Below are positions 1,613-30,660 of a stretch of 64,000 nt of DNA, one piece after another; the first letter of the stretch is position 1, and each line of letters begins with the position of its first letter. Location of the stretch: the sequence record OR886155.1; one strand, 5' to 3'. The translations under genes were made by a program, and so were the position numbers. Under the pieces are notes generated by a model. That model worked only from the letters and a program-made list of their open reading frames with translations, ran no database searches and was not told the DNA's origin. This DNA comes from Escherichia phage FH3.

Positions 1613-1777
1613 TTAGATCAGATCTGTTTTCTTGTGCAGACCACACACTTTACAGCGAGAGTAGATACGCAACCCTTGTCGCTCTCTGTCAGTAAGTTTA
1701 TTTGTGATCGTCAGTTCATAAGTATGAAGATCTTCCCACTCATGGAAATGAAAGAAGCGTTTGAACCATTTGATCAT
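1613..1777 (-). CDS. small Cys/His-rich protein, Zn-ribbon paralog B (54 aa, below ORF-track cutoff)
   Basis: My translation: MIKWFKRFFHFHEWEDLHTYELTITNKLTDRERQGLRIYSRCKVCGLHKKTDLI; near-identical architecture to paralog A. Confidence 0.35.
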   Translation of the reverse strand: MIKWFKRFFHFHEWEDLHTYELTITNKLTDRERQGLRIYSRCKVCGLHKKTDLI

Positions 1778-1786
1778 AATGATTCC

Positions 1787-1948
1787 TTAGATTACATCAC
1801 GATGACTAACATCACCACACACCTTACACTGAATAACGTAACGTGTGCCCTTGTCGTTATTCCCATCTGAATCTGTATAGACCAGAGGGTGAGTATTAAT
1901 AATCTTCCAATCATGACAATGAAAGACACGCTTTAGCCACTTGAACAT
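1787..1948 (-). CDS. small Cys/His-rich protein, Zn-ribbon paralog A
   Basis: C-terminal part of ORF 1787-2122 from internal Met: MFKWLKRVFHCHDW...CKVCG. Confidence 0.35.
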   Translation of the reverse strand: MFKWLKRVFHCHDWKIINTHPLVYTDSDGNNDKGTRYVIQCKVCGDVSHRDVI

Positions 1949-1955
1949 ATTAACC

Positions 1956-2207
1956 TCAAGCACAAGCAGGGAGAGTGATGATTTTATACTGACCATCAAA
2001 CTCACTAAACAAACCCAAGAATGTAGGACTGTACGTACCAGTGCAAACAAACTCATCAAACAATGCGTTATAGCTAGGCTTAATCTTCCAAGCCCATACA
2101 TAACCCATCTTGTCAATTGCAATGTAACGAGTGTTCAGAGGAACAGTCATCATCACACCGTCAACTTCGATCACTTTAGTGATTGGTGCAGCTTGAAAGT
2201 TTTTCAT
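1956..2207 (-). CDS. hypothetical protein
   Basis: ORF track, 83 aa, same strand as flanking genes. Confidence 0.3.
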   Translation of the reverse strand: MKNFQAAPITKVIEVDGVMMTVPLNTRYIAIDKMGYVWAWKIKPSYNALFDEFVCTGTYSPTFLGLFSEFDGQYKIITLPACA

Positions 2208-2389
2208 ACTTTACCTTTGATAAAAATATCATTACCACAGACACAGCATGAACGAACAACAGTAGCGCCACGCTGAACGATACGAACCTCTTCCTTAACC
2301 AGATTAATACGAGCACCGCAGCAAGGGGAGTTGACATAAGAGTAACCAGCTTGCGTATGTTTTATTGTTTGCTTAGACATTTTATTCAA
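2204..2389 (-). CDS. small Cys-rich protein (CC...CC)
   Basis: ORF track; SPCCG...SCCVCG pattern. Confidence 0.3.
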   Translation of the reverse strand: MNKMSKQTIKHTQAGYSYVNSPCCGARINLVKEEVRIVQRGATVVRSCCVCGNDIFIKGKV

Positions 2390-2726
2390 GATCTCTCAGT
2401 TGTTCAGCCATTTGTTCGCATTCGTTGATGCAGAAAGCTTCTGTTCTTGGAACCCCGTTAGGGTTGAACCGTGTCTTATCACCTGCATGGGCACAATCAA
2501 ATCCGATTGTATTTAAACCACTCATCTCTTCAAGGGTGTCTTGCCATGTGACACCACCATGAACACTTACATAACAAACCTCTTCCTTTCCGTTATATCC
2601 GGTGAAGTTTTTATGTTTTAAGCTGTCTGGTAGCTCTACATATCCACAAAAATGGGAGTCGTTCATGTGCATAATCACAGCACGAAGACCTGATTTAGTG
2701 ACCCAATCTTTAACCATGCGTCTCAT
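2382..2726 (-). CDS. hypothetical protein
   Basis: ORF track; start moved to internal Met because the listed start overlaps a terminator hairpin. Confidence 0.35.
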   Translation of the reverse strand: MRRMVKDWVTKSGLRAVIMHMNDSHFCGYVELPDSLKHKNFTGYNGKEEVCYVSVHGGVTWQDTLEEMSGLNTIGFDCAHAGDKTRFNPNGVPRTEAFCINECEQMAEQLRDLE

Positions 2727-2770
2727 ATAAGCACCTCTTGTTAGTTTAAGTAAGAGTTGTCCCTTAATTA

Positions 2771-2798
2771 AAACAACAAAGGCCACCCGAAGGCAGCC
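2771..2798 (-). terminator. rho-independent terminator (minus strand)
   Basis: Minus-strand hairpin GGCTGCC-TTCG-GGTGGCC followed by U-rich tract; near-copy at 50101-50128. Confidence 0.4.
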
Positions 2799-3306
2799 TT
2801 TTATTTGTTAACTGTTATACGTCCAACCACCTTGCTTGTTACGAATGGCTGACATTGCATGAATCCAAAAGCCTTCCAGTTTCAGAGCACCGTTAGCTAC
2901 TGCATCCATACGTTCAGGGCGGTTCATACGTTTGGTTGATACTTTCATACCTATCTCTCTTTGTTAGTGGAGGCATTATTGCCAGTTGATATAAGGAATA
3001 GCCCTAGTCAGTAGACTAATCCTGACCGCGTACTCATTGCCGACCTTCTCTGCCTAAGAGTTCAGGTTCTAGAGCTATCTCTTATTCCAACTGGTGAAGA
3101 CTCCCTACCCCTAGGAAGTCTCCTGAATCCCAAACTAATACGTACCCCTACATATCAGAAAGTCTTTCGAAAATTAACAGGTTTTAGTCTAGCACCGGAT
3201 GTTCGAGCAAGCTCTCCCTAGCGGTGTGGCATATGCCTGAATTAATAAGTTAATGAGGAACACCCTCACATAGCCCTCTGATAAACACAAGGGCTATAAG
3301 TCGGTG

Positions 3307-3525
3307 TTACTTTTGAGTCAAATACAAATCAGGGCGAGGCATAACAGTGGTTGATGGATTGAAATTACCAACATAACCAGTGCTTAGATTGGCAGCCCTG
3401 CGTAGTCCATTAGAGAGATCATCATCTAGCATCAGCCAGAATTTTTGATCATAAGAGAAAACATCTCCCCCTTTAAGATCTTCCACATTTGCATATTTAG
3501 GAGTCTCAACTACTTTAATTTCCAT
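3307..3525 (-). CDS. small early protein, paralog family member 2
   Basis: VEDLKGGDVF...FWLMLDDD...PRPD; clear similarity to ORF 57-278. Confidence 0.45.
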   Translation of the reverse strand: MEIKVVETPKYANVEDLKGGDVFSYDQKFWLMLDDDLSNGLRRAANLSTGYVGNFNPSTTVMPRPDLYLTQK

Positions 3526-3783
3526 CTACTTACCCTTGTTGGTAATAATAACATCATGAAGAAGAACAATCTTGCTTTTCGAGCTAAGCTTAAGGACTTG
3601 CTTATTTGTCAGACTGAGGACGACACAACCACCATCAGAAGGCTTGGTCTCTTCAATCTGTGGGGTAAATAGCTGAACAACCATGTAGAAATCTGCTCGT
3701 GTTTCCCTGATTTGGAATACATCTCCAAGTTTGAGATCACCAACACACAAAGACGGTTCATTTACTTCAAGATTAATCTTCAT
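3526..3783 (-). CDS. small early protein, paralog family member 3
   Basis: VGDLKLGDVF core; abuts neighbours. Confidence 0.4.
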   Translation of the reverse strand: MKINLEVNEPSLCVGDLKLGDVFQIRETRADFYMVVQLFTPQIEETKPSDGGCVVLSLTNKQVLKLSSKSKIVLLHDVIITNKGK

Positions 3784-7710: not shown

Positions 7711-9484
7711 CTTTCAATTGTAAGGGCGCTATTGCCCCGCTCTCTATGAGCTTGTTTAAGTCACTATTAACTTATCTCTAACCACTCACTTTTTAAGTAG
7801 TTACAGGTAAGTGAGGCGGTCTTATCAGGAGTTAACCTTGCCGCCTCCTTATCCGTGATGTTTCATCTGGTATCTTTAATTAGTCGCTATAAACGAAGCC
7901 GACCTGATAGCGATGATCAATCATCACAATAAGGCTATGCGTCCGACTCTATTTAATTACATTGCTGTAACCGTCGGCAATATCGTTTACTTTGTTTTCG
8001 CTCCCGCTTATCCTTTGTGCCAACTCCTGATCGCTAACCATCGCCCACTACGGGAGGCTATTGCGAAAAGGTCATTGACCGCCTAATATTCCGGCGTTTT
8101 ATATCTTTCAGCAGGTTTACTACATAAACCGACTATGTACTTTCGTCATAAGACGAATATCAAGCCGTTCACATCGTAAACGTTCGCATTAAACCTTATT
8201 GTTAAATAGCAATTTGCCACTTTTTAACCACTCCCCGCCGCCCTCAATTGGGCGTTAATTCTTCGGACTTGCCTACCCTGATTAACTTCTTTCACTGTAG
8301 CACCTTGTTAGCGATGACCGCCGCTACCCTTAACCGTGGGCGATTAGCTTAAGCCGTTGCGTGTACTCAATGAATCCGTTTATCAGTGGTGACTTTTCCA
8401 GTAAGGGAATGTAAGACTGTTTACCCTGATATTTTAGGGAGTCTTACACCGTTTTATCTGGTATGCTTTCCGATGGTTATTATCATCAAGCATATTCAAC
8501 CGATATATGGGAATGTTTAAATTATTAAAGAGCGGTAAATCTATCAGTGTGCTTTCTCACACTATGCAACTGTTAGCCGTTGTTACGCTTTTCACTGAAG
8601 CGATGATTTGCTTAGTGAGTGCTCATTATGAATCATGTTGTTTTCGCTGTCAACCGCTTTTTAATCTTTTTTCGTCGTTCCCGCTATTGGGAGGATATAT
8701 CAATCAGCTTTATTTGATTGAAGATTAAGCGGTGATGCTTAACTTATGATTCATATTGTTAAAGAGCGTTAGCCTTTTAGAGTGTCTGCTAATCACTGTC
8801 ACATTTAAGGCTTACTTATTCATTAACGGGCCGCCTACACCCGAACTACTCGCTGCACTATGTGCCACTTTTCCCGCGATACGTTGATTTGGGAACTTGT
8901 TAGCGGTGTATCTGCTAACTTGTGGTTAGTATGGACTACTTTAACCACGTTTGCAACTCTTTTTATCATCTTCTTTTAATTCCTTTCCCTTATCTCGCGT
9001 GAATCTATGCGAAAGGGCAAGATGATAAGTTTTTAAAGAGCGGGATTTTTTAAGTCATCGCTGACTATGCTCACTATATATCAGGCTGTTTTCGGTGTCA
9101 ATACTCTTTTTGAGAATATTTTCACTTTCTAACCTGATTTTTAAAGAGCGGGGCAATTTCTTGCCTTGTATGTTTTACATCGTACCCGATGAAATGAAGT
9201 ATACGCTAATCAGATGAGGTTGCAATAGGGTAAAGCAAATTATTTTAAACTTTTTCACTATAGGAAGGTAAAAGAGCAGGCGCACGCGATACATCATAGA
9301 AAACGGCTTGTAAAGCGATATTTAGCGGCCTAAAACGCATCACAACGAGCTAAAAGGGAGTAAGGCATACACTCACCTCATAAAAGAGAAAAGCCTCACT
9401 AGGAGGCTTACAGGAAGGATTAGAGAATCAGATAGATTATGACCATAGGCATGACTACGGCACAATACAGAAGAAAGATTAAGC
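7711..9484. repeat. 1.8 kb ORF-free region with reiterated motifs
   Basis: TTAAAGAGCG at 8525, 8759, 9033 and 9141; two hairpin + CCGT..TGTTT(C/T)ATCTGGTAT modules near 7820-7885 and 8400-8478; CACTATAGG at 9256-9264. Confidence 0.45.
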
Positions 9485-9850
9485 CTATGGATTTACACAT
9501 TGACCGTTACCGGATGCCATTTCATTCATAGACTCATCAAAGAGCGTCAACGATGAGCGCATCAAGTGATCGACCGTAATTTGCTTACCAGTGGTTTCAT
9601 TTACCAGTTGAATAGTTTTATCATATGATTGTACATGATCGAAATCATTTACATGTAAAATAATAACTTTAGGTGACTTTTTACCAGTGTCATAGTTTTC
9701 TACAATATAGGTGCACTGTAAACCGTCAACCGTAGCAGGGGAGAACGTTGCAGCCTTAACGCTACCCATAGCTGACAGCAGGACACCTAACAGGAGAACG
9801 ACAAGGAAGAAGCCTACAATCGTTTTAACGACGAATTTAATAAACCACAT
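9485..9850 (-). CDS. membrane-anchored or secreted protein
   Basis: N-terminal hydrophobic stretch FVVKTIVGFFLVVLLLGVLLSAMG. Confidence 0.4.
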   Translation of the reverse strand: MWFIKFVVKTIVGFFLVVLLLGVLLSAMGSVKAATFSPATVDGLQCTYIVENYDTGKKSPKVIILHVNDFDHVQSYDKTIQLVNETTGKQITVDHLMRSSLTLFDESMNEMASGNGQCVNP

Positions 9851-10038
9851 AGCAATTAACCTTTAATATTGAGATTAAGCAAATCGAGAGCGGCAACAAT
9901 CAGTAAATAGTTTAAAGAAATGAAGCCCACGACAAACAAAAACAAAAACAGCACAACAGACCTTAAAGAACGTAAGAATAAAGCATGTCAGCGACGAATA
10001 ACGCCACTGTAACAACGAACAAGCAACGCCAAAAATAA

Positions 10039-10311
10039 TCATTCTTCTTCATTGCTACCCTCGCCAAAAAATGCTACGCTGATTTGTTCCACTTCTTCCA
10101 GCGACAGAAGAATCCCACGTTGGGCTAGATACTTCCCAACAGTTAGATAATCTTGCACCAAGCAGACAATAGGAAAGCGTATGTTTTGTATCTCACCTTT
10201 AGAAAGAAAAGACAAATAACCAACGTCGGTTGACTCATCAAAGGACAATGTAACGCCACCGTAATTATGCGTGTCAATTAATGCAATAGTTTCATTTCCC
10301 ATCAGTATCAC
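10039..10311 (-). CDS. small protein, paralog trio member C
   Basis: THNYGG motif shared with ORF 10318-10476. Confidence 0.35.
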   Translation of the reverse strand: MILMGNETIALIDTHNYGGVTLSFDESTDVGYLSFLSKGEIQNIRFPIVCLVQDYLTVGKYLAQRGILLSLEEVEQISVAFFGEGSNEEE

Positions 10312-10317
10312 CCTTAA

Positions 10318-10476
10318 TTAGCCCATGATTGAGCAGGTTAGCCAGCGACAAGCCACCGTCTTAATATTATCGCCGACAATAAACAAGATTAGACACTTGT
10401 CAGAGTCATCAGTATATGAGAAATCAATCCCACCATAATTGTGAGTCGGAATAGTAAAGCTATGCTCTTTAGTCAT
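10318..10476 (-). pseudogene. small ORF, paralog trio member B, possibly frameshifted
   Basis: My translation MTKEHSFTIPTHNYGGIDFSY... (52 aa); the conserved C-terminal GGLSLANLL motif is encoded out of frame. Confidence 0.3.
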
Positions 10477-10720
10477 GTATCAATCTTTCACTTAACAGGT
10501 TAGCCAGTGACAAATCACCTTTGATATAGATGTCACGAAAATCAGCACGGGTAATTTCAAGGCCAGCAAATTTCAACCATTTTTTAGCTGACTGAAAATC
10601 CATTTTGCAAAAAGTGATAATAGGCACGATAAGCTGACCATCAAGCGTATTAAACATGATAGCAGTATCGCCAACAAAACAAGAAAAGTCGTTAGATAAT
10701 TCAACTTCTTTAATAGCCAT
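10469..10720 (-). CDS. small protein, paralog trio member A
   Basis: C-terminus GDLSLANLLSERLIHD; about 30 nt of its 3' end recurs at 10326-10355. Confidence 0.35.
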   Translation of the reverse strand: MAIKEVELSNDFSCFVGDTAIMFNTLDGQLIVPIITFCKMDFQSAKKWLKFAGLEITRADFRDIYIKGDLSLANLLSERLIHD

Positions 10721-10756
10721 TATTTATACTCCCAAAAGATTGGCAAATTAATTTAT

Positions 10757-11248
10757 TCACTTACTAGCCTTAATGCAGTTGGCTAAATTAACGTGAACAG
10801 TATAAACAGCGTTGTCAGCGTTATTGTAAACAGTTGTGGCGATCATCGACTCATTAACCGGACCATAACTCACAAGATTAGTAACGGCTTTAACGTCTTC
10901 ATAACGTTGTACAGTGCCAAATGTCACCATATCCATATCGTTATCGGTACGCTTAAGCACCAAATCACTGTTAGGCTGATTATCTAGCGTTTTAGATTGA
11001 AAGAGAACGCCATCATTAGTAACGTTGCTAAATTTCATCTTTAACACGATGGAAGTGCCATCACTATCAGCACCGTTACAAATCATCCAACCCTTATTGA
11101 TGGAACTAGAGAAGACACTAGCCGCATCAGTTGCAGGAGTAGGACTAGCGATAGCCTTATCAGAAAGAGATGTGACCAGTGCACTAACACCAATCGCTGC
11201 AACTAGTGCATAACTTGCCAGATTAACTACCTGCATTGCTTTAGCCAT
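10757..11248 (-). CDS. secreted protein with signal peptide
   Basis: N-terminus MQVVNLASYALVAAIGVSALVTSLS... typical cleavable signal peptide. Confidence 0.4.
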   Translation of the reverse strand: MAKAMQVVNLASYALVAAIGVSALVTSLSDKAIASPTPATDAASVFSSSINKGWMICNGADSDGTSIVLKMKFSNVTNDGVLFQSKTLDNQPNSDLVLKRTDNDMDMVTFGTVQRYEDVKAVTNLVSYGPVNESMIATTVYNNADNAVYTVHVNLANCIKASK

Positions 11249-12015
11249 TTCGTTACTCCTTAGATAGATTCAGTCAACTGTCATCAACTATATATTAAAG
11301 GAAAAGACTGTCAACCATCTATTTTCTAACTTTCTTGCATCCTACTGAAAACTAAAGGAATTTAATTTACTAAACTTTCCATACTCAGAGAATCAGCTTA
11401 CTTCTTATTGTTACTTTATAACACTACGGGTAACAGACCAACAGACCAGGACAAACGGGGATACAACAACCGCAGGACAGACCACGGGGAAACACAGCCA
11501 GATAGTGCGGTAGTAATATACCACTTAAATAATTGTATAACTCAAACATCAAAGACGTTCGCTACGCTCACAAAGGCACGCTGAAAAAGAAAGTAATAAA
11601 AGAAACAATTAAAAGAAATACAATCATCCACTTAATTAATACATACATCATTATTGCACTCATAATCATTACTATTGAAACTATTTACACTCAAACTATG
11701 GGGGATGGAACGGTAACAATACGGTATTATTAGACCTGTTATGATTGTGCCTGTACAGTGCTAGCCTTTCTCTCACTCTTTAAAGGGGTACTAAATAAAC
11801 GGGTAGGTAATGTATTGGGTAGTATACACGGGGGAATAATTACGGGGAGTAGGCACGGGGAAAGGTGGAACATGTAAAGGGAAGGTAAAGGCATTGCCAA
11901 TAACCCTTTTTTAAATGAGGACTCCCCCTTTTTAGGAAACGCGCGGGAAGCGGCTAGCCCCACTCGGTCAAATCAGAATTTTAAACTCTTATATATAAGC
12001 TTAAGAGAGGACTTA
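11249..12015. promoter_or_regulatory. divergent intergenic control region
   Basis: Lies between the minus-strand early block and plus-strand genes; ACGGGG-type motifs clustered at 11426-11490 and 11798-11862; AT-rich tract 11580-11740. Confidence 0.35.
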
Positions 12016-20870: not shown

Positions 20871-20875
20871 AATCA

Positions 20876-20908
20876 GACCCTGCCTTCGGGCGGGGTTTTT
20901 TCGTTTTA
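20876..20908 (+). terminator. rho-independent terminator after capsid gene
   Basis: CCTGCC-TTCG-GGCGGG followed by TTTTTT. Confidence 0.6.
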
Positions 20909-20971: not shown

Positions 20972-21484
20972 ATGGCAATGCCAGATTTCAGAGAAGCTTT
21001 TACCTATGATCCAAATACAGGGCATCTTTTCTGGTCTATGAGTAACATCTTTAATAAGCAGAAAGGACAACGTGCCGGGTGTATTGGCGACAGAGGTTAT
21101 CGTAAAGTGACTTTTAAAAAGAAATCATATTTAGAGCATAGGGTCATAGCTGAACTCTTTCTTCCTAAGGTAGAAGGGAAGGACTGTGTCAACCATAAGA
21201 ATGGAATAAAAGACGATAACAGGATTGAGAATCTAGAGTGGTGTACTCAACAAGAAAATTGTACACATGCTTTTGAAACAGGCCTCTCAACACCTAGGAG
21301 TCTTGAGGATAACCCTAATTCCAAACTCACTAAAGAGCAAGTTCTCTTTTGTTTGGAGAACTACAAACCGAGAGATAGAGAGTTTGGAGCTAGAGCCTTA
21401 GCTAGAAAGTTTGGGGTCTCTAAAAGCACAATATCTCTCATTACTAAAGGCGTAAACTGGAAGGAGGTTTATTATGATGCCTGA
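20972..21484 (+). CDS. HNH homing endonuclease
   Basis: HRVIAELFLPK...VNHKNGIKDDNRIENLEW motif; inserted between capsid and tail genes. Confidence 0.75.
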   Translation: MAMPDFREAFTYDPNTGHLFWSMSNIFNKQKGQRAGCIGDRGYRKVTFKKKSYLEHRVIAELFLPKVEGKDCVNHKNGIKDDNRIENLEWCTQQENCTHAFETGLSTPRSLEDNPNSKLTKEQVLFCLENYKPRDREFGARALARKFGVSKSTISLITKGVNWKEVYYDA

Positions 21485-22223
21485 CGTCCAATATCCCATC
21501 AATACCTATGGGTGGCTAAAGAAAGCCGTGGCCCTCTGGGCAGATAGGGACGATGACGAATTTGTTAATCAAATTCCAAACTTTATTAATTTTGCAGAGA
21601 AAGAGATTTATCGCAACTTACGTATCCCTCCTCTGGAAAAGGAAGTGTATCTGAGTATCAAGAATGGTATAGCATTCATCCCACCGGACTACTTGCAAGC
21701 TCAATGGATAATGAGAGCTAAAGATGGAGCAATATTCCAAGTAACTTCCCCAGAAGAGATAAGCTATCGTAAACAGCATGGCACAATTAACCCCTCTCAC
21801 TGGAATAATCAACCTGTTAATTTTGCTCGTTTCGGAAGTCGTTTCTTGTTCTATCCACTGATTGATGCTGATACCCCTGTTTACCCTGAAGATGGAAGTC
21901 CTGCTATTCCAGCAGAGAACTCTGTAATTCTAAGCTATTATGCAGATCCTCCGGAGTTTCACGCAGACGAAGATACTAGTGCAATACTTACGATTGCTCC
22001 AGAACTTCTTCTATACTTTACCCTTAGGCATGCATGTCTTTTTGTTCAGGATGATAACGGTGTTCAAAAATGGTCTGCGTTAGGTAAGGCTATTCTTGAT
22101 GAGATGGTTGAGCAAGATAAGAAACAGGAGTACTCAGGTTCTCCTATTGCGATACCCAACAACATGACCAGACTTCAGAGTAGCCTGCCAGATATTTATG
22201 GAATACGTACCTCTAGAGTATAA
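21474..22223 (+). CDS. virion structural protein (possible head-tail adaptor)
   Basis: Position between capsid and tail fibre genes; no specific motif recognised. Confidence 0.35.
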   Translation: MMPDVQYPINTYGWLKKAVALWADRDDDEFVNQIPNFINFAEKEIYRNLRIPPLEKEVYLSIKNGIAFIPPDYLQAQWIMRAKDGAIFQVTSPEEISYRKQHGTINPSHWNNQPVNFARFGSRFLFYPLIDADTPVYPEDGSPAIPAENSVILSYYADPPEFHADEDTSAILTIAPELLLYFTLRHACLFVQDDNGVQKWSALGKAILDEMVEQDKKQEYSGSPIAIPNNMTRLQSSLPDIYGIRTSRV

Positions 22224-22232
22224 GGAGATTTT

Positions 22233-25200
22233 ATGATCAGTTACAACAACTCTGCACCTAATGCGGTTAACAACGTAGGCCAATTCGGTGCTACAGAAGG
22301 CTCTATCGGTGCTTACAAGTCAGCAGCTGAATACGCAGCTGATTCCAAGTATTGGGCGATGCTTTCTCAAAAGAACTACAACAGCATTGATGAAATTCTT
22401 AAGGAAGTAGAAAGACTCCATGCAGAAGGTAGTTTATTAAAAGAAGATATTGAACAACTCAAATTTGATTTTGAAAACCAAAACCAAATGCTTCTTGGTC
22501 TTATTCAACAAACAGGCGAAGCTATTGACAACACTAATATTGCTATTGGCGAAGCTGATGCAGCAACAGATCGAGCCAACCAAGCAGTGCAAGATGTTCT
22601 TACTCAATTAGATAAGATTTCTAATATGTCTGTTGTTGCCACAACCCTTCCTCCGGGAGCACCTGCAACGGGGAGTTTTGATAATAGTACAGGTGTTTTC
22701 TCCTTTGGTATCCCTGAAGGTCAACCCGGTAAAGATGGGAAGGATGGTACAGATGGTACAATCTCTGATATTGGGGATGTAGCTATAAGCACTCCTGTAG
22801 CTGATGATTATGGGTTCTTTGTGGACAAAGACAACGGCGGTTTGTATCGAACTCCAATGAGTGAGATTGCTAATCTTATTCCAGCAGTGGTTAGTTTCAA
22901 CGGTCGTACTGGTCCTGTTGTTCCAGCTGCTGGAGACTACACAGTAAGTCAAGTTACTGGCGCAGCTGCTTCTGGTATTAACAACGATATTAACCAGATT
23001 CGCGGGTTAACCACTGCCTTATCTGTAGCTCAAGGCGGTACGGGTGGTAAGACACCGTACGAAGCTAGAACCAACCTCCAGCTGGAAAGGTTCACCCAGA
23101 ATGATGCTAACACTACTTCAATGAAAGCTGGTGGTGATGGAAGGATTCGTCTTACAGTTAGCAAGTCCGCTGAAGGCTCTGGGTGGGGTTGCTTTAATGA
23201 CGACACTGGAGCATACATTCCTCTCGGAGTAGGTCAAGGTGGTACGGGGGCAACAACGGTGGCTGGTGTCAAAGAGAATCTCGGTATCAACCGCATAATA
23301 CAAGGTGGTAGTTATAGCGATTTCCTTACAGCCAACGGTTCCAACCGCTTGCGTATCCAAGATAACGGTGCATGGGGCAGCAGCACTGGAACAGGTTGGG
23401 TACCGTTAGGGGTCGGGCAGGGTGGTACTGGTGCAACAACAGCAGCTGGAGCTCGAGCTAACCTAAACTTGAATAGGTTTGGGGAAGTAGGTTCTGAGAC
23501 TCAAGTGTTTTCTCCTAACGGTAGTAAGAAAATCATTATTACTAATGACCGATGGGGAGCCTATGACATTGCTGCTTCCAAATACCTCCCTTTAGGTATT
23601 GATCAAGGTGGTACTGGGGCAAATACTGCTGATGCAGCGCGTATGTCTCTTGTTGCTGCTAAGAGTGGAGACAACTCTGATATAACCTCGATGACTAACA
23701 AGGTTACTTTCACGCAGTCTCCAGTGATTCCTGATGCAGTAGCTAACAACGAACCAGTAGCTCTTGGTCAACTGTCTACTGAAACTACATTACTTGAAAC
23801 GAAGATTAACGAAGCTAAAGATGCTGCTGCTGCTGCTAATACTAATGCGGATAGTCGTGTACCAACAGCTCAGCTTTCTAATACGTCTAACGTAGCTCAA
23901 GGTGATGCACTAATTGGGGTCAAGGCTCCTTTCGCTGGCGCTGCGGCTCGTACTCAGCATGACATAAATGCACAATTCAGTAGCATTCTTGACTTTCTTG
24001 GTGATAAATACAATGGCACTACGGATGCTGCAAGTTCCTTTATTTCTGCCAACACGCTTCTACCTAAAAGTCGTGAGATCATTGTTCCAAGCGGGACATA
24101 CCTCCTCAATAGTAATGTAGAATGTTATGGTCGCCGTTTCGTATTTGAAGAACCAGTGACATTTACTGGTGCTGGTAAATTCTATGGTGCTATTGTAAAT
24201 CGCATTATGTCGGATGGGACAACTAAAGTTTCCCAATGGGCTAAGCCAGGAACTACCGAGAGGATGACCACATCTGCTGTTTTCGGTGATAACGGAGTGA
24301 CGTCAACCGGAATTCAGATTGGTGGGGCTGTGCCATATAACGGTGCTGATGGTATTAGAATGTTTACCGATGGCAGTTCTGGGTGGTTAGGTGTTCGTGC
24401 ATCTAAATGGCCTCACCCTACAGAAATGGCGATATATCCAAGTTCTAAATCCGGGTCATGTCAGACAATCTCAGGCAGCAATGCTGTAAAAATCCTGTCT
24501 GGTGCTAGCATTACATCTGAAGCGATCGGTAAACCTATTGCTATCTATGATGCACTTTATACTGTAGCATCCGTAACAGCAGATGGTTTTACTGTTAAAA
24601 ATATCAATGGGTCACCTGTTACTTGGGGATCAAATGCAACCCACTCGTACAGCTTGTGTTACTACCACGGCAGTGGTGTATGCAGTGTATCCGGCACTAC
24701 TGTAACCCGCATTAGTGGTGATCCGTTTGTGATTCCCGACGCATCAGTACCTCAGACAATGACTATTAATGGTGTCGACTACCGTGTAGTGGCTTTTACA
24801 GACCCTCAGCATGTTACCCTTAGTTCTGCTCCGGGGGATTCAGCATCAACAGAATATAAATTCTGGGGTACAGTTAACAACCTCAACAGTGCACTTCGGG
24901 TTCATCGTATCAATGATGCTGGCTTTGAGGAAAATATTAGTCTCATTGCCAATAATAGTGGATATTACGCATTGCACGCTGCTGCTAGTAACCCAGCGAA
25001 TGAGCAGTATCCACTCTACATTGGATCTGGTTGGGAAGATAACGGGCAGATGCGAAGAAGCATTATCTCCGCAGCCAATGGAGATGTAACCCTCGGTGGT
25101 AACTACGGGAACGGGCCGTTATATGTACCCTATAGCCAAACCTCTAACCCACAAATCATGCTGGACAACAGGAATGGCAACGCCACCGTTACAGTCTCTG

Positions 25201-25943
25201 GTGGATCTACACCGGATGCGTCGTTAACTATTAAGTCTAAAGGTGCAGGTAAGGTTGTGTTCCACTCCGAGGTAGGTGTTAACGCCGCGATGTATCCATA
25301 TATAGATAACATCTATTCGTGTGGTAAGTCTGGGAATAGGTGGTCACAGATATGGGCATCGAACGCTACTATCCAGACTTCTGATGGGACGACAAAAACC
25401 GAAGTTCAAGGATCCAATCTATCTACAGACTTTATTCTGGGCCTAAACCCTGTTTCTTACAAAAACATTGTTGGTGGGAATGTTGTAGAAGAGATTGAAG
25501 ATGGTGTAGAGGAGATTGAACGTCAGGTGGTAGAAAAGGTTGTTTCAACTGAAGAAGTCCACGAACGTGTTGTTGATGGAGATGAAGTCTATTACGTCCG
25601 TAAGTTCGTTGACAAGGAAGTAGAGCGTCCAGTGTTCCATGAGGTTGATCTGCGTGATGAGCTAGGTAATGTCATTGGAACAATCAAAACACCGTTGATG
25701 GAGAAAGTAACCGTTCCTAAAACTCGCCAAGTTATTACGGAAGTACCGGGTAAACGTACGCACTATGGATTCATCGCACAGGAAGTTAAGGATCTCGTAG
25801 ACAAGTTGGGAATCTCCGACTTCGGTGGGTACGTTGAAGGTGAGGACGGTAAGCTTGGTCTTCGCTACGGTGAGTTCATCTCTCCGATAGTGTCTTGCTT
25901 GCAGGATATTATCAAGCGACTGGAACTGCTAGAGAAAAAATAA
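22233..25943 (+). CDS. tail fibre protein with collagen-like segment and C-terminal intramolecular chaperone (peptidase S74-like)
   Basis: GQPGKDGKDGTDGT Gly-X-Y run; four to five LG(V/I)(G/D)QGGTGA repeats; C-terminus ...GFIAQEVKDLVDKLG...LRYGEFISPIVSCLQDII. Confidence 0.8.
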   Translation: MISYNNSAPNAVNNVGQFGATEGSIGAYKSAAEYAADSKYWAMLSQKNYNSIDEILKEVERLHAEGSLLKEDIEQLKFDFENQNQMLLGLIQQTGEAIDNTNIAIGEADAATDRANQAVQDVLTQLDKISNMSVVATTLPPGAPATGSFDNSTGVFSFGIPEGQPGKDGKDGTDGTISDIGDVAISTPVADDYGFFVDKDNGGLYRTPMSEIANLIPAVVSFNGRTGPVVPAAGDYTVSQVTGAAASGINNDINQIRGLTTALSVAQGGTGGKTPYEARTNLQLERFTQNDANTTSMKAGGDGRIRLTVSKSAEGSGWGCFNDDTGAYIPLGVGQGGTGATTVAGVKENLGINRIIQGGSYSDFLTANGSNRLRIQDNGAWGSSTGTGWVPLGVGQGGTGATTAAGARANLNLNRFGEVGSETQVFSPNGSKKIIITNDRWGAYDIAASKYLPLGIDQGGTGANTADAARMSLVAAKSGDNSDITSMTNKVTFTQSPVIPDAVANNEPVALGQLSTETTLLETKINEAKDAAAAANTNADSRVPTAQLSNTSNVAQGDALIGVKAPFAGAAARTQHDINAQFSSILDFLGDKYNGTTDAASSFISANTLLPKSREIIVPSGTYLLNSNVECYGRRFVFEEPVTFTGAGKFYGAIVNRIMSDGTTKVSQWAKPGTTERMTTSAVFGDNGVTSTGIQIGGAVPYNGADGIRMFTDGSSGWLGVRASKWPHPTEMAIYPSSKSGSCQTISGSNAVKILSGASITSEAIGKPIAIYDALYTVASVTADGFTVKNINGSPVTWGSNATHSYSLCYYHGSGVCSVSGTTVTRISGDPFVIPDASVPQTMTINGVDYRVVAFTDPQHVTLSSAPGDSASTEYKFWGTVNNLNSALRVHRINDAGFEENISLIANNSGYYALHAAASNPANEQYPLYIGSGWEDNGQMRRSIISAANGDVTLGGNYGNGPLYVPYSQTSNPQIMLDNRNGNATVTVSGGSTPDASLTIKSKGAGKVVFHSEVGVNAAMYPYIDNIYSCGKSGNRWSQIWASNATIQTSDGTTKTEVQGSNLSTDFILGLNPVSYKNIVGGNVVEEIEDGVEEIERQVVEKVVSTEEVHERVVDGDEVYYVRKFVDKEVERPVFHEVDLRDELGNVIGTIKTPLMEKVTVPKTRQVITEVPGKRTHYGFIAQEVKDLVDKLGISDFGGYVEGEDGKLGLRYGEFISPIVSCLQDIIKRLELLEKK

Positions 25944-25994
25944 GTGGTCACTGTTTTTCTTGTGCAGTTGATGCATCTTATAGCTAAATCTAAT

Positions 25995-26016
25995 AACCCT
26001 CTTCGGAGGGTTTTAG
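25995..26016 (+). terminator. rho-independent terminator after tail fibre
   Basis: CCCTC-TTCG-GAGGG followed by TTTT. Confidence 0.5.
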
Positions 26017-27648: not shown

Positions 27649-30600
27649 ATGGCGTTGTATCCAATAAAATCACTCGGTGCTGTCGGTGTTATTGCTGACC
27701 AAGCACCTACTGATTTAGCTCCTAACGCTTTCACTAACGCTATAAACGCTCGATTTGTTGAGCAGAGAGTTTTTAAGACGGGGGGCAATGCCCCTCTTTC
27801 TTACGTAGATGAAGATAAGGATCTAACCCCATTATCTTTCATATCTATGCCTTTCGATTACTATAGTGCAGGTAATAGCTTTCTTATTGTGGGAACCAAT
27901 AAGAAGTTATATAAACTAACAGATGAAAGCTTAACTGATATCAGCAGGAAAGTTGCTACGGTCACTAAAAAAGCTTCTGCTAATATCAAGATATACCCTG
28001 TAGTCTCTAGGATTACTCCTAAAGAGTCTACTATTTCTATGAACTTCAACCAAACTAAATCTCTAGAAGTTACAATCTCTCCAGAAGATGCTAATAACCC
28101 TGAACTTGTTTGGAGTGTTAGTAACTCTTCTTACGGTCAGATCACTGTAGACCCTACTGACTCTAAGAAAGCCTCTTTGACGTCTTTGAATAAAGAAGGT
28201 AATCTCGTAGTTACAGTTCAGACTAAAGATGAATCTGTATCAGCTCAGATTGCTGTCAATATTATTGACGGAGACTCAGGTATTTTCTTGAGTCAGGATA
28301 CTCTGACTGTCCGTAAAGGTGGAAATACTACCATAACTGCGGTGACTGGTAAAACTCCTGTAAGTTGGTCCACTACTAATGGCTCTATCATTTCTATAAC
28401 ACCTAATGCTAACACACTCACAGCAGTGCTTGTAGCTAATGGAGAAGGGACAGCAACTGTTACAGCAGACAATGGAACAAAAACTGCATCATGTATTGTT
28501 AATGTAATCCCACAGATTGATAGTATTACTCTGAGTCAAACAGATGTTACCATTAATAGAGGGGTTCAATATATTCTCACAGCTACAGTGTCTCCAACGA
28601 ATGCTCCTAATAAAAATATAACATGGACTTCCTCTAACCCGAATATTGCTACAGTGTCTGGTACGAGCACAGAGGCTACCATCACTGCAATTACAGCTGG
28701 ATTCACTGAGATTACTGCTACTACTCAAGAGGGCAACAGAACCGCTGTCTGTACAGTTCGTGTAGATTTGGCTGGAAGGATGATGAGAACCTCTCTTATG
28801 GCTGAGTCTTCTACTGAACCAGATGCTCCAGAAGTGGTTGAGGATGTAGTAGTTCCTGAATCAGAAGAGGTTTTATATTTTGCATCACCCTCCTCTGGGA
28901 TTGATACTACTGGAATGTCTGAAGGAAATAGCTTCTATGATTATTCAAACGTTGATGACATGGAAGGTTTTGCAAGAGCCTCTCTTTTTGCCACTCCTTT
29001 AGACTCTGTAACATTAGATGTAGTTAGTGCTTCTCTTGATGTAGGAGAGGAGATCGTTATTACAGCTACAGCGTCTCCAGAGGGTGACTACTCGTACTTA
29101 TGGTCTGTAGACAAAACTGGCTATGTCTCAACTACTTCAGTAACTGGTAAATCTATTAAACTTACAGCTCTTCGCAAAGGTGAGATTAACATAACATGTT
29201 CTGTCAGCCAAATGACACAAAGGGATTATGACGCGTTTGACGACTATCCTTGGTATCATGCTGTTATATCAAACTGTGCAGTTGCTACAACTCACTATGA
29301 AACACCACAAGTAAAAGAATTCGAATCTGAACATTTTACTGATCTTCCGGGGTGGGGAGAACAAACAGTGGTAGATAGTGATGGGAATCCTTCAGTTAAG
29401 AAGTTCAACTGGAAATGTGAAAGAGTTCGTTCTTTTAACAACAGGCTCTTTGCCCTGAATATGAGGGAATCAAATGCTTCTGGCGTTACAACTAACTACC
29501 CACTTCGTCTTCGTTGGTCTAATTTTGCTAATGAGAACAAAGCTCCTACACTATGGGATGACTTTGCCTATGATCGTTTAGTAACATCTGACTTAGCTTC
29601 GAACATAGTTGGGCAGACTGAGGCTCTGGAAAATGGTTATGCTGGTTACATTGATTTAGCAGACTCCAATGGCAGCTTGATTGATATCCTACCTCTTAAA
29701 GATTACTTGTTCGTTTACACGGAGTTTGAAACGTACATTGGTTCTCCGACTAATAACACGTATCAACCACTGATGTTCAAGAAACTCTTTAATGACTCTG
29801 GTATCCTTGCTCCTGAGTGTGCAGTTGAAGTAGAAGGTAGCCATTTCGTTGTTACTCAGAACGATGTGATCTTACATAACGGCGCAACTAAGAAGTCAAT
29901 CGCTTCCAACCGTGTCAAGAACATGCTGATTAATGAGATCTGTCTGGTCAACCCGTTAGCTACCAGAGTTCACTTACATCAAGATAAAAAGGAGGTTTGG
30001 ATTCTTTATGTAGGTCCGGGAGAGCCTAAGGAAAGTTATGCTTGTACTAAAGCTGCTGTATGGAATTACGAGTTTGATACTTGGTCTTTCCGTACTATCC
30101 CATATGCTCAGTGTATTGGTTTGGTTGATCCTCCTGTCCTTGAAAGGGGTCCAATTTGGGCTGACTTCCAAGAAATCACTTGGGATGACCCATCGATCAA
30201 AGAGCTTGTTTGGAGAAAGGATGCAACAAACTTCAGACAGAGGATTACGATAGTAGGTTCATTCTTGAGGGGATTCTACCAAGTGGATGTAGGCGCTCTT
30301 GACTATTTCTATGACAGATTAAATGATGCTGTTATAGAGAAGCCTCTGGAAATGAGGTTGGAGAGGACTGGTATAGATTTTGATAATGTGACGAATGAGT
30401 GGAATCAGAAGCATGTTAATAGATTCCGTCCTCAGACAACTGGCTCAGGCACCTATACCTTTGAAGCTGGAGGTAGTCAATTCTCAAATGAATATGGACA
30501 CCCACACACATCTAAGACTTATACAATCGGTGTTGACAGACATGTCTCGGTGAGACTGAACCATCCATACCTTTTCTATAATGTTATAGATAATGATGTT

Positions 30601-30660
30601 AACAGTAATGCTGCTATCAATGGGTTAACGATAGAGTTTGCTGTTGGCGGACGGAGATAA
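27649..30660 (+). CDS. large tail protein with tandem Ig-like (BIG2-type) domains
   Basis: 1003 aa; repeated TxxVxPxxA...W(S/T)SSN...ATV...G.ATITA modules in the N-terminal third. Confidence 0.5.
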   Translation: MALYPIKSLGAVGVIADQAPTDLAPNAFTNAINARFVEQRVFKTGGNAPLSYVDEDKDLTPLSFISMPFDYYSAGNSFLIVGTNKKLYKLTDESLTDISRKVATVTKKASANIKIYPVVSRITPKESTISMNFNQTKSLEVTISPEDANNPELVWSVSNSSYGQITVDPTDSKKASLTSLNKEGNLVVTVQTKDESVSAQIAVNIIDGDSGIFLSQDTLTVRKGGNTTITAVTGKTPVSWSTTNGSIISITPNANTLTAVLVANGEGTATVTADNGTKTASCIVNVIPQIDSITLSQTDVTINRGVQYILTATVSPTNAPNKNITWTSSNPNIATVSGTSTEATITAITAGFTEITATTQEGNRTAVCTVRVDLAGRMMRTSLMAESSTEPDAPEVVEDVVVPESEEVLYFASPSSGIDTTGMSEGNSFYDYSNVDDMEGFARASLFATPLDSVTLDVVSASLDVGEEIVITATASPEGDYSYLWSVDKTGYVSTTSVTGKSIKLTALRKGEINITCSVSQMTQRDYDAFDDYPWYHAVISNCAVATTHYETPQVKEFESEHFTDLPGWGEQTVVDSDGNPSVKKFNWKCERVRSFNNRLFALNMRESNASGVTTNYPLRLRWSNFANENKAPTLWDDFAYDRLVTSDLASNIVGQTEALENGYAGYIDLADSNGSLIDILPLKDYLFVYTEFETYIGSPTNNTYQPLMFKKLFNDSGILAPECAVEVEGSHFVVTQNDVILHNGATKKSIASNRVKNMLINEICLVNPLATRVHLHQDKKEVWILYVGPGEPKESYACTKAAVWNYEFDTWSFRTIPYAQCIGLVDPPVLERGPIWADFQEITWDDPSIKELVWRKDATNFRQRITIVGSFLRGFYQVDVGALDYFYDRLNDAVIEKPLEMRLERTGIDFDNVTNEWNQKHVNRFRPQTTGSGTYTFEAGGSQFSNEYGHPHTSKTYTIGVDRHVSVRLNHPYLFYNVIDNDVNSNAAINGLTIEFAVGGRR

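Follow-up and report, generated by a model that had tools for sequence, protein, structure and literature searches.

A Kuravirus long tail fibre gene with an exchangeable distal cassette and a predicted self-cleaving chaperone domain

How is a tail fibre of 1,236 amino acids (aa) put together, and which of its parts is likely to meet the host? The question is raised by a gene of Escherichia phage FH3 (sequence record OR886155.1), which we analysed within a window of 64,000 nucleotides (nt). An initial annotation of this DNA had described the product as a tail fibre combining collagen-like repeats, GQGGTGA repeats and a C-terminal self-cleaving chaperone domain, and had left about 600 aa in the centre as a possible seat of receptor-binding or enzymatic activity. 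Here we find that the N-terminal part of the protein is homologous to the proximal long tail fibre protein of phage SU10, and sequence comparison indicates that the gene is a mosaic, into which a distal cassette came from an unrelated phage family. We propose that the protein is probably a single-chain long tail fibre of a Kuravirus, presumably a homotrimer, that ends in this cassette with its S74 chaperone.

A long tail fibre of Kuravirus type, probably in one chain

The fibre gene is 98.3% identical in DNA sequence to that of Escherichia phage 1-6af and 97.5% identical to that of 1-6bf. Both phages were obtained from sewage, 1-6af is classified as a Kuravirus, and avian pathogenic Escherichia coli (APEC) was the host used for 1-6bf. 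We assign the window, which as a whole shows 98% identity to 1-6af, to the genome of a Kuravirus of the phiEco32/SU10 group. The description as a tail fibre is well founded: residues 1–243 match SU10 gp12 with ~50% identity (E = 1e-72), and the neighbouring genes stand in Kuravirus tail order (Table 1). SU10 has six trimeric long fibres, the N-termini of which are docked on the adaptor ring, where a fibre-dock domain has been described; only the first 90 residues of gp12 were resolved (PMC9509320). These fibres make the first contact with the cell, thereby triggering rearrangement of the short fibres and the nozzle (PMC9509320). By homology, the first ~90 aa of the present protein would dock on the adaptor and be followed by a coiled coil.

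The long fibre of SU10 consists of two proteins, gp12 and gp13, and the window leaves out ~13 kb of the genome, so the present protein could be the proximal half only, to which a separate distal receptor-binding protein attaches. We consider this most improbable. The gene order in the window is immunoglobulin (Ig)-like decoration protein, HNH endonuclease, adaptor, fibre, holin, endolysin, short tail fibre and nozzle, which from adaptor to nozzle is the SU10 order minus gp13, the distal fibre gene that follows gp12 in SU10. The holin gene follows the fibre gene directly, with no gp13 gene in between, and SU10 gp13 used as a query gave no other match within the window; in the annotated stretches of 1-6af and of the Kuravirus vB_EcoP_WFI101126, too, there is only one fibre gene between adaptor and holin. 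The present protein, moreover, has its own distal module and chaperone, whereas the S74-like C terminus of SU10 is on gp13. A two-protein fibre as in SU10 was rejected on this gene order and the absence of a gp13 match in the window. Because the window holds no separate distal-fibre gene, we regard the fibre as a single-chain variant relative to that of SU10.

SU10 gp13 itself (9402–11573 in SU10) ends in the S74-like sequence ...RRGIIAQQAETV..., so the self-cleaving chaperone of SU10 would lie on the distal protein and not on gp12.

The distal cassette is shared with an N4-like phage

The two parts of the gene have different relatives. In megablast comparisons, gene nt 1–1730 are 84–86% identical to the Kuraviruses WFI101126 and Ptacy1532, and gene nt 1720–3711 match, at 83.5% identity, gp27 (‘tail protein’) of vB_EcoP-ZQ2. 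This phage is an N4-like Gamaleyavirus and belongs to the Schitoviridae, a podovirus family unrelated to Kuravirus. A three-way DNA alignment places the left crossover at ~23950–23965, inside the RTQHD codons. At the right end, the similarity to ZQ2 terminates at the fibre stop codon. Directly behind it lies a non-coding relic that can be aligned to the final 44 nt of WFI101126 gene 12 (...AVDASYS and its stop codon; 37/44 by manual count), and farther downstream come a terminator hairpin and the holin gene, both shared with WFI101126. Since the relic is the 3′ end of the old gene, the recipient was a WFI101126-like Kuravirus whose pectate-lyase module was replaced. We take the fibre gene to be a mosaic in which the distal ~2 kb (~23950–25943) came from an unrelated phage family.

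The left boundary appears to lie in a shared linker that serves for module exchange: the motif GDALIGVK.P..GA..RTQHD stands ahead of both the present cassette and the unrelated pectate-lyase cassette of WFI101126-type fibres. Other modules stand at this position in sister Kuravirus fibres: pectate-lyase, SASA, SGNH, BNR-sialidase or PF25670. The present cassette is in turn found in other proteins behind anchors of the T7 fibre (PF03906, N terminus) and gp66/TSP1 (PF18668, N terminus) types. Relatives also use an alternative junction further upstream; in the relatives P0010–P0014, the central core of the cassette is attached directly to the ...SDITSMTNKVTFTQ joint.

Old and variable repeats form the shaft

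Between the gp12-like part and these joints, the QGGTG motif occurs in four copies, at residues 267, 335, 396 and 458 (spacing 68, 61 and 62 aa), whereas any QGGTG at all appeared in 0.6% of protein shuffles. Copies 2–4 fit the pattern PLG(V/I)(G/D)QGGTGA(T/N)T and copy 1 reads LSVAQGGTGGKT; of the four or five GQGGTGA copies initially counted, four are present, and no fifth QGGTG was found in the protein. The modules share 26–47% protein identity and 68–72% DNA identity among themselves; they are old repeats and not recent duplications. That their copy number might vary was a sound expectation: 111 Kuravirus-type fibres have 2–6 GGTG motifs and 3–6 Gly-X-Y triplets each, and 1-6bf, although 97.5% identical, has a tract one triplet shorter and differs in its set of shaft modules.

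The shaft module is found in 425 phage records by tblastn, including T5-like tail-fibre genes and Seurat-like lateral fibres. Since T5-like fibres share the shaft repeats, and both the stalk and the S74 chaperone have homologues in T5 pb1, the combination of features that had been highlighted is not unusual. In the literature on two matching Protein Data Bank (PDB) entries, SU10 gp12 (built to residue 90) and PhiM1 gp47, the module is undescribed, and full-length Pfam, PHROG and NCBIfam scans assigned residues 244–940 only generic ‘tail fiber’ PHROGs and PHROG 28871, of ‘unknown function’.

The collagen-like repeats proved to be a Gly-X-Y run of five triplets only. Runs of at least five triplets occur in 1.75% of protein shuffles, and the run is encoded by a 9-nt tandem DNA repeat at 22728–22758. 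Among the 111 fibres, 45 have three triplets, 48 have four, 15 have five and 1 has six; we regard the run as real, though short, because its position is kept across relatives. It is not an extended collagen array: the Pfam family Collagen (PF01391) gave no match to the fibre protein at E ≤ 1, and the PDB collagen match was weak (E = 0.48).

In the 1-6af record (OR983333), a 1-nt deletion at ~5700 (GGGAAGGAT to GGG-AGGAT) falls within this tandem repeat and divides the fibre gene into two annotated coding sequences (CDSs) of 182 and 1,040 aa. It could be a sequencing error or a genuine frameshift at the repeat.

A chaperone domain with a conserved, predicted cleavage site

The proposed C-terminal self-cleaving chaperone agrees with both profile and residue evidence. 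The S74 family PF13884 matches above its cut-off (27.4 bits against 22), over model positions 37–57 only, and also matches 26 of 29 family members. In T5 pb1, the catalytic site comprises the Thr1263–Ser1264 bond, Lys1269, Asp1239 and, from the neighbouring chain, Arg1250, which ties cleavage to correct trimer folding (PMC4690869). All five catalytic and sensor residues are conserved here in register, as D1025 (D1239), R1036 (R1250), T1049/S1050 and K1055 (K1269), and they recur across the family (S1050 in 28/29 members, K1055 in 27/29, D1025 in 26/29 and R1036 in 25/29). The sequence ...ASNATIQT/SDGTTK... aligns with ...AVNGTINT/(S1264A)DARLK... of T5 pb1 and with the mutated Ser of the endoNF structure 3gw6, and the mature phi92 endosialidase chain terminates in ...TINT, at the Thr equivalent to Thr1049. 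Since the five residues are in register and conserved, cleavage is predicted at Thr1049–Ser1050; it would yield a mature fibre of 1,049 aa and a released fragment of 187 aa. The stalk upstream of this site gave 22 bits with PF12219, below the cut-off of 25, and 14 of the 29 family members match that model (best E = 9e-7).

The partial Pfam match and the insertion of 88 aa that interrupts the domain could instead mean that the S74-like domain is degenerate, or that it is retained in the mature fibre tip. Such a domain that is not released seems quite improbable to us, as all five catalytic residues of pb1 are conserved in register and across the family, and in pb1 a retained chaperone blocks receptor binding (PMC4690869). 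We explain the partial match by the ~88-aa insertion, which parts the N-terminal half of the domain from the C-terminal one. The catalytic Ser and the GfIAQ motif are 129 aa apart in 22 proteins and 30–50 aa (mostly ~41) apart in 11. The insertion was modelled as long β-hairpins, with predicted local distance difference test (pLDDT) scores of 64–74. Hairpin ‘tentacles’ have been described for the pb1 chaperone (PMC4690869), and we speculate that the insertion is a lengthened form of them.

At the start of the insertion, a 21-nt tandem duplication (25480–25520; two copies, 90% identical) encodes NVVEEIE/DGVEEIE.

A centre predicted to be folded, a cap missing from some relatives and an uncharacterised core

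The central region was modelled with AlphaFold2 as two monomers, residues 540–1236 (mean pLDDT 56) and residues 575–945 (mean pLDDT 69). It is predicted to be folded and β-rich, not disordered. Of the ~600 aa that had been called unassigned, ~265 (residues 675–940) are still without any assignment and the remainder can now be subdivided into the parts listed in Table 1.

The first part of the cassette, which we call the cap, resembles in its model the start of a right-handed β-helix glycanase. Foldseek gave local matches of 80–105 columns with probabilities of 0.87–0.97 to 6e0v (phi92 colanidase), 7chu, 9ozd/9ozl and 5m5z; the β-helix glycanases among the Foldseek matches include RbmB and a β-1,3-glucanase. 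As the Foldseek output comes without query coordinates, we assigned these matches to the cap because a sequence profile matches 5m5z and 8ikx at its first ~76 positions. The pectate lyase superfamily (PF12708) had no match in the fibre protein in a Pfam scan, and in close relatives of the cassette its match is confined to model positions 1–60 of 213. The cap is absent from P0010–P0014 and P0139, which keep the core. A β-helix depolymerase as the family of the whole cassette was rejected, the match being limited to the first ~60–100 residues and some relatives being without the cap.

The core that follows opens with a Gly-rich, poorly modelled stretch, continues with two tandem β-barrels that are mutually homologous (hhalign probability 94–96%, E = 1e-9) and have a weak Foldseek match to the riboflavin synthase two-barrel fold, and ends in a conserved ALRVHR...GFEENISLIA...QYPLYIGSGW segment. 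W718, E731, R889, E899, E900 and N901 are near-invariant across the distant core family. In an exhaustive profile search with a threshold of E ≤ 1e-30, this family comprised at least 173 clusters (formed at 50% identity), many of them from uncultured phages, and the number rose to 921 with a threshold of E ≤ 1e-10; the stretch that the clusters match in common, residues ~675–1015, covers the core and most of the stalk. An earlier impression that the core is very rare (33 proteins in a word-indexed protein search) was overturned by this exhaustive hidden Markov model search. Among 50,697 phage records, the core is carried only by 1-6af, 1-6bf, ZQ2 (two records) and Pantoea phage ROV85. No Pfam domain was found in ten distant core members and NCBIfam has no family for the core; PDB profile searches with alignments of 11 and 40 sequences returned the cap motif and the stalk only, with nothing for the core. 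With Foldseek, residues 575–945 had no PDB match at E ≤ 1e-3, and only the ZQ2 orthologue was convincing in BFVD.

Some distant core members (P0177, P0198, P0251 and others) have no S74 domain; their conserved ending, ...NGY.xVKD..GT.RKLA.IA, suggests that C-terminal folding or capping of the same core is achieved there in another way.

Receptor binding or enzymatic activity at the tip

Several features of the cassette might be expected of a depolymerase or deacetylase-type enzyme, that is, of a fibre-mounted tailspike that cleaves or modifies O-antigen or capsule to reach the cell surface. The linker and cap are similar to the start of β-helix glycanases and of the Sf6 endorhamnosidase; the order of the elements is endosialidase-like, and the model of the whole C-terminal part retrieves endosialidases first or near-first (E ~1e-4); sister fibres have enzymatic modules at this place; and E731, E899, E900 and R889 are near-invariant in the distant family. 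We nevertheless consider an enzymatic core possible but doubtful. The β-helix similarity extends over only ~60–100 residues, and P0010–P0014 and P0139 keep the core without the cap. Pfam, NCBIfam and the PDB gave no match to a catalytic domain, and residues 575–945 had no Foldseek match at E ≤ 1e-3. The endosialidase fold matches have template modelling (TM) scores of ~0.09 and are probably due to the stalk and chaperone; a sialidase reading that was based on these matches (model of residues 540–1236, mean pLDDT 56) was abandoned at that score. Finally, the paper on 1-6bf reports clear plaques and does not mention halos.

We lean instead towards a non-enzymatic binding role of the core, as in T5 pb1, in which removal of the chaperone unmasks O-antigen binding (PMC4690869). 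A non-enzymatic tip is favoured because no catalytic fold is detectable, because the glycanase-like cap is dispensable in natural relatives and because the sequence is too short for a long β-helix or a six-bladed propeller. Of the two activities originally suggested for the centre, the enzymatic one thus found no positive support, and receptor binding appears likelier from the lack of a catalytic fold and the dispensability of the cap. 1-6bf is reported to plate efficiently only on its isolation host, which would fit a narrow specificity determinant. Neither the paper on 1-6bf nor that on PhiM1 holds receptor or structural information on these fibre modules.

Taken together, we give a probability of about 0.75 to the reading of the protein as a single-chain, presumably homotrimeric Kuravirus long tail fibre with a distal cassette and an S74 chaperone. 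Several observations weigh against it. Enzymatic modules (pectate lyase, SGNH and SASA esterases, and BNR sialidase) stand at the same position in sister Kuravirus fibres, and the near-invariant residues of the core include the acidic E731, E899 and E900. The S74 match is partial, in a domain interrupted by 88 aa. The window covers ~64 kb of a ~77-kb genome, so a partner protein could be encoded outside it. In addition, the monomer models are poor in the stalk and in parts of the core, with the mean pLDDT values of 56 and 69 given above.

A proposed path from virion to host surface

If the protein is a single-chain long fibre, its residues 1–90 would sit on the adaptor ring and lead, through the coiled coil, a small domain and the very short Gly-X-Y segment, into the QGGTGA shaft. 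The GDALIGVK...RTQHD linker would join the shaft to the distal cassette of cap, core, stalk and S74 chaperone. Stalk and tip may fold as a trimer from a nucleus provided by the chaperone domain. With Arg1036 of the neighbouring chain in position, Ser1050, activated by Lys1055, would cut the Thr1049–Ser1050 bond; the 187-aa fragment would be released and the 1,049-aa mature fibre would remain. The mature tip might then make the first, reversible contact with a glycan or protein of the host surface, a contact that would orient the virion so that short fibres and nozzle rearrange as in SU10.

We also put forward, tentatively and as an idea more doubtful than likely, that the core represents a structurally new class of phage domain for receptor binding, or possibly for glycan processing, made of a Gly-rich intertwined segment, two duplicated SH3-like barrels and a near-invariant R...EEN element, with the S74 insertion forming extra-long β-hairpin ‘tentacles’ that embrace a larger tip.

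Features of the locus and its surroundings

Table 1. Features of the fibre gene and its immediate neighbourhood (window coordinates)
Feature	Position	Strand	Evidence or remark
Adaptor gene, 249 aa, SU10 gp11 position (fibre docking site)	21474..22223	+	PHROG 2941 virion structural protein, E = 1e-74; order as SU10 gp11 to gp12
Long tail fibre gene	22233..25943	+	ATG start, 1236 aa, stop codon included; open reading frame list
SU10 gp12-homologous N terminus (proximal long tail fibre), residues 1–243	22233..22961	+	PDB 7z47_D, E = 1.2e-72; PHROG 10305 tail fiber protein
Gly-X-Y run GQPGKDGKDGTDGTI, five consecutive triplets, residues 163–177	22719..22763	+	
Shaft repeat array, residues 244–480	22962..23672	+	One partial and three full ~62-aa modules, each closed by QGGTGA
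Conserved joint AAKSGDNSDITSMTNKVTFTQSPVIPDAV..., residues 478–515	23664..23777	+	Second SGxNxDI motif; alternative module junction in relatives
Ala-rich linker, residues 516–553	23778..23891	+	In WFI101126-type fibres; absent from P0004–P0008
Junction motif VAQGDALIGVKAPFAGAAARTQHDI, residues 554–578	23892..23966	+	DNA similarity shifts from WFI101126 to ZQ2; motif also in Sf6 tailspike 2vbe/4urr
Cap, residues 575–674	23955..24254	+	One helix and a few short strands, pLDDT 70–88
Core module, residues 675–940, presumed receptor-binding part	24255..25052	+	PHROG 28871 ‘unknown function’
Two tandem small β-barrel domains, ~70 aa each, residues ~739–812 and 813–885	24447..24887	+	pLDDT 70–95
Stalk, residues 941–1049, probably related to endosialidase and T5 pb1 stalks	25053..25379	+	Aligns to 4uw8 and 3gw6; low pLDDT as monomer
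Predicted scissile bond Thr1049/Ser1050	25377..25382	+	Aligns onto T5 pb1 Thr1263–Ser1264
S74 intramolecular chaperone domain, residues 1050–1236, 187 aa	25380..25940	+	PF13884
Val/Glu-rich insertion of ~88 aa in S74 domain, residues ~1083–1170	25479..25742	+	
Relic (3′ end) of the WFI101126-type pectate-lyase fibre gene that was replaced, own stop included; non-coding	25944..25988	+	
Terminator-like hairpin AACCCTC-TTCG-GAGGGTT, 3′ of fibre gene	25995..26012	+	Conserved; terminator annotated at equivalent WFI101126 site

A promoter scan returned sites no more numerous than in shuffled sequence. Upstream of the adaptor, a gene for an HNH endonuclease (20972–21484, + strand, 170 aa; PHROG 59, E = 8e-40) overlaps the adaptor start and is flanked on its other side by the Ig-like decoration gene with a terminator (hairpin 20875–20898). 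Neither SU10 nor WFI101126 has a CDS of this kind annotated there, but one of the same size is present in 1-6af; the gene is probably a homing endonuclease insertion. The homologue of the SU10 nozzle protein gp17 (27649–30660, + strand, 1,003 aa) matches Ig-domain structural-protein families over residues ~130–410, and its annotation in other records is ‘tail fiber protein; host specificity’. The sign of the GC skew flips at ~12 kb and ~42 kb, coinciding with the + strand structural block (~12.6–41.7 kb), with − strand blocks on either side.

Discussion

The protein is a typical tail fibre, modular and from a known phage genus, with near-identical copies already in GenBank. Our analysis adds the exact boundaries of the cassette and a relic from which the direction of its transfer can be read, an exchange of Kuravirus with N4-like phages, and the single-chain arrangement relative to SU10; within the protein, it adds the internal duplication of the core, the size of the uncharacterised family to which the core belongs, and the 88 aa inserted into the S74 domain. 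In practical terms the gain is modest: a portable receptor-binding cassette, delimited exactly by the RTQHD linker on the left and the stop codon on the right. It is mobile between Kuravirus and N4-like phages and occurs on T7-type and gp66-type anchors, and could serve as a design for host-range engineering of APEC-targeting phages. For the core family, which has neither a Pfam family nor a solved structure, one trimer structure would annotate hundreds of phage proteins.

Among known systems, the SU10 long fibre (gp12 and gp13; PDB 7z47, PMC9509320) is alike in its gene position after the adaptor, its short Gly-X-Y tract and its QGGTG and SGxNSDIT motifs, but it is made of two proteins where FH3 has a single 1,236-aa chain, and the distal module on gp13 is unrelated to the present one. 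T5 pb1 (PDB 4uw7/4uw8; PMC4690869) has a homologous stalk and chaperone with the same arrangement of Asp, Arg, Thr-Ser and Lys, and T5-like phages have tail-fibre genes with the same ~62-aa QGGTGA shaft module; the pb1 tip binds O-antigen without degrading it (PMC4690869). T5 is a siphovirus, however, with a chaperone of 133 aa against 187 aa here, and no sequence similarity was detected between the present core and the bullet-shaped receptor-binding domain of pb1. In the K1F and phi92 endosialidases (PDB 1v0e, 3gw6 and 4hiz; PF12219 and PF13884), too, a stalk comes before a self-cleaving chaperone, and their cleavage site aligns with the one predicted here; Pfam found neither the sialidase β-propeller (PF12217) nor the endosialidase N-terminal domain in the fibre protein, and the fold matches that scored TM ~0.09 were 1v0e and 4hiz.

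The Sf6 tailspike (2vbe and 4urr) has the linker/start motif GDA(L/M)IGVK...RTQHD...ILDFG in common with residues 554–625 (E = 2e-6); in Sf6 a long right-handed β-helix endorhamnosidase follows, whereas the similarity here stops after ~70 residues. The fibre of WFI101126, named a ‘pectate lyase superfamily protein’, corresponds to the present one over its first ~575 aa and in the linker motif, as do the terminator and lysis genes behind it, at ~84% DNA identity, but it continues into a pectate-lyase-like C-terminal module (PF12708 in its relative P0016) without an S74 domain. ZQ2 gp27 is its counterpart at the other end: over the last ~660 aa, from the cap through core and stalk to the chaperone and its insertion, it has 85% protein identity (83.5% for the DNA) to the present fibre, whereas its N-terminal virion anchor, of the N4-like/G7C type, is entirely different and ZQ2 belongs to another virus family.

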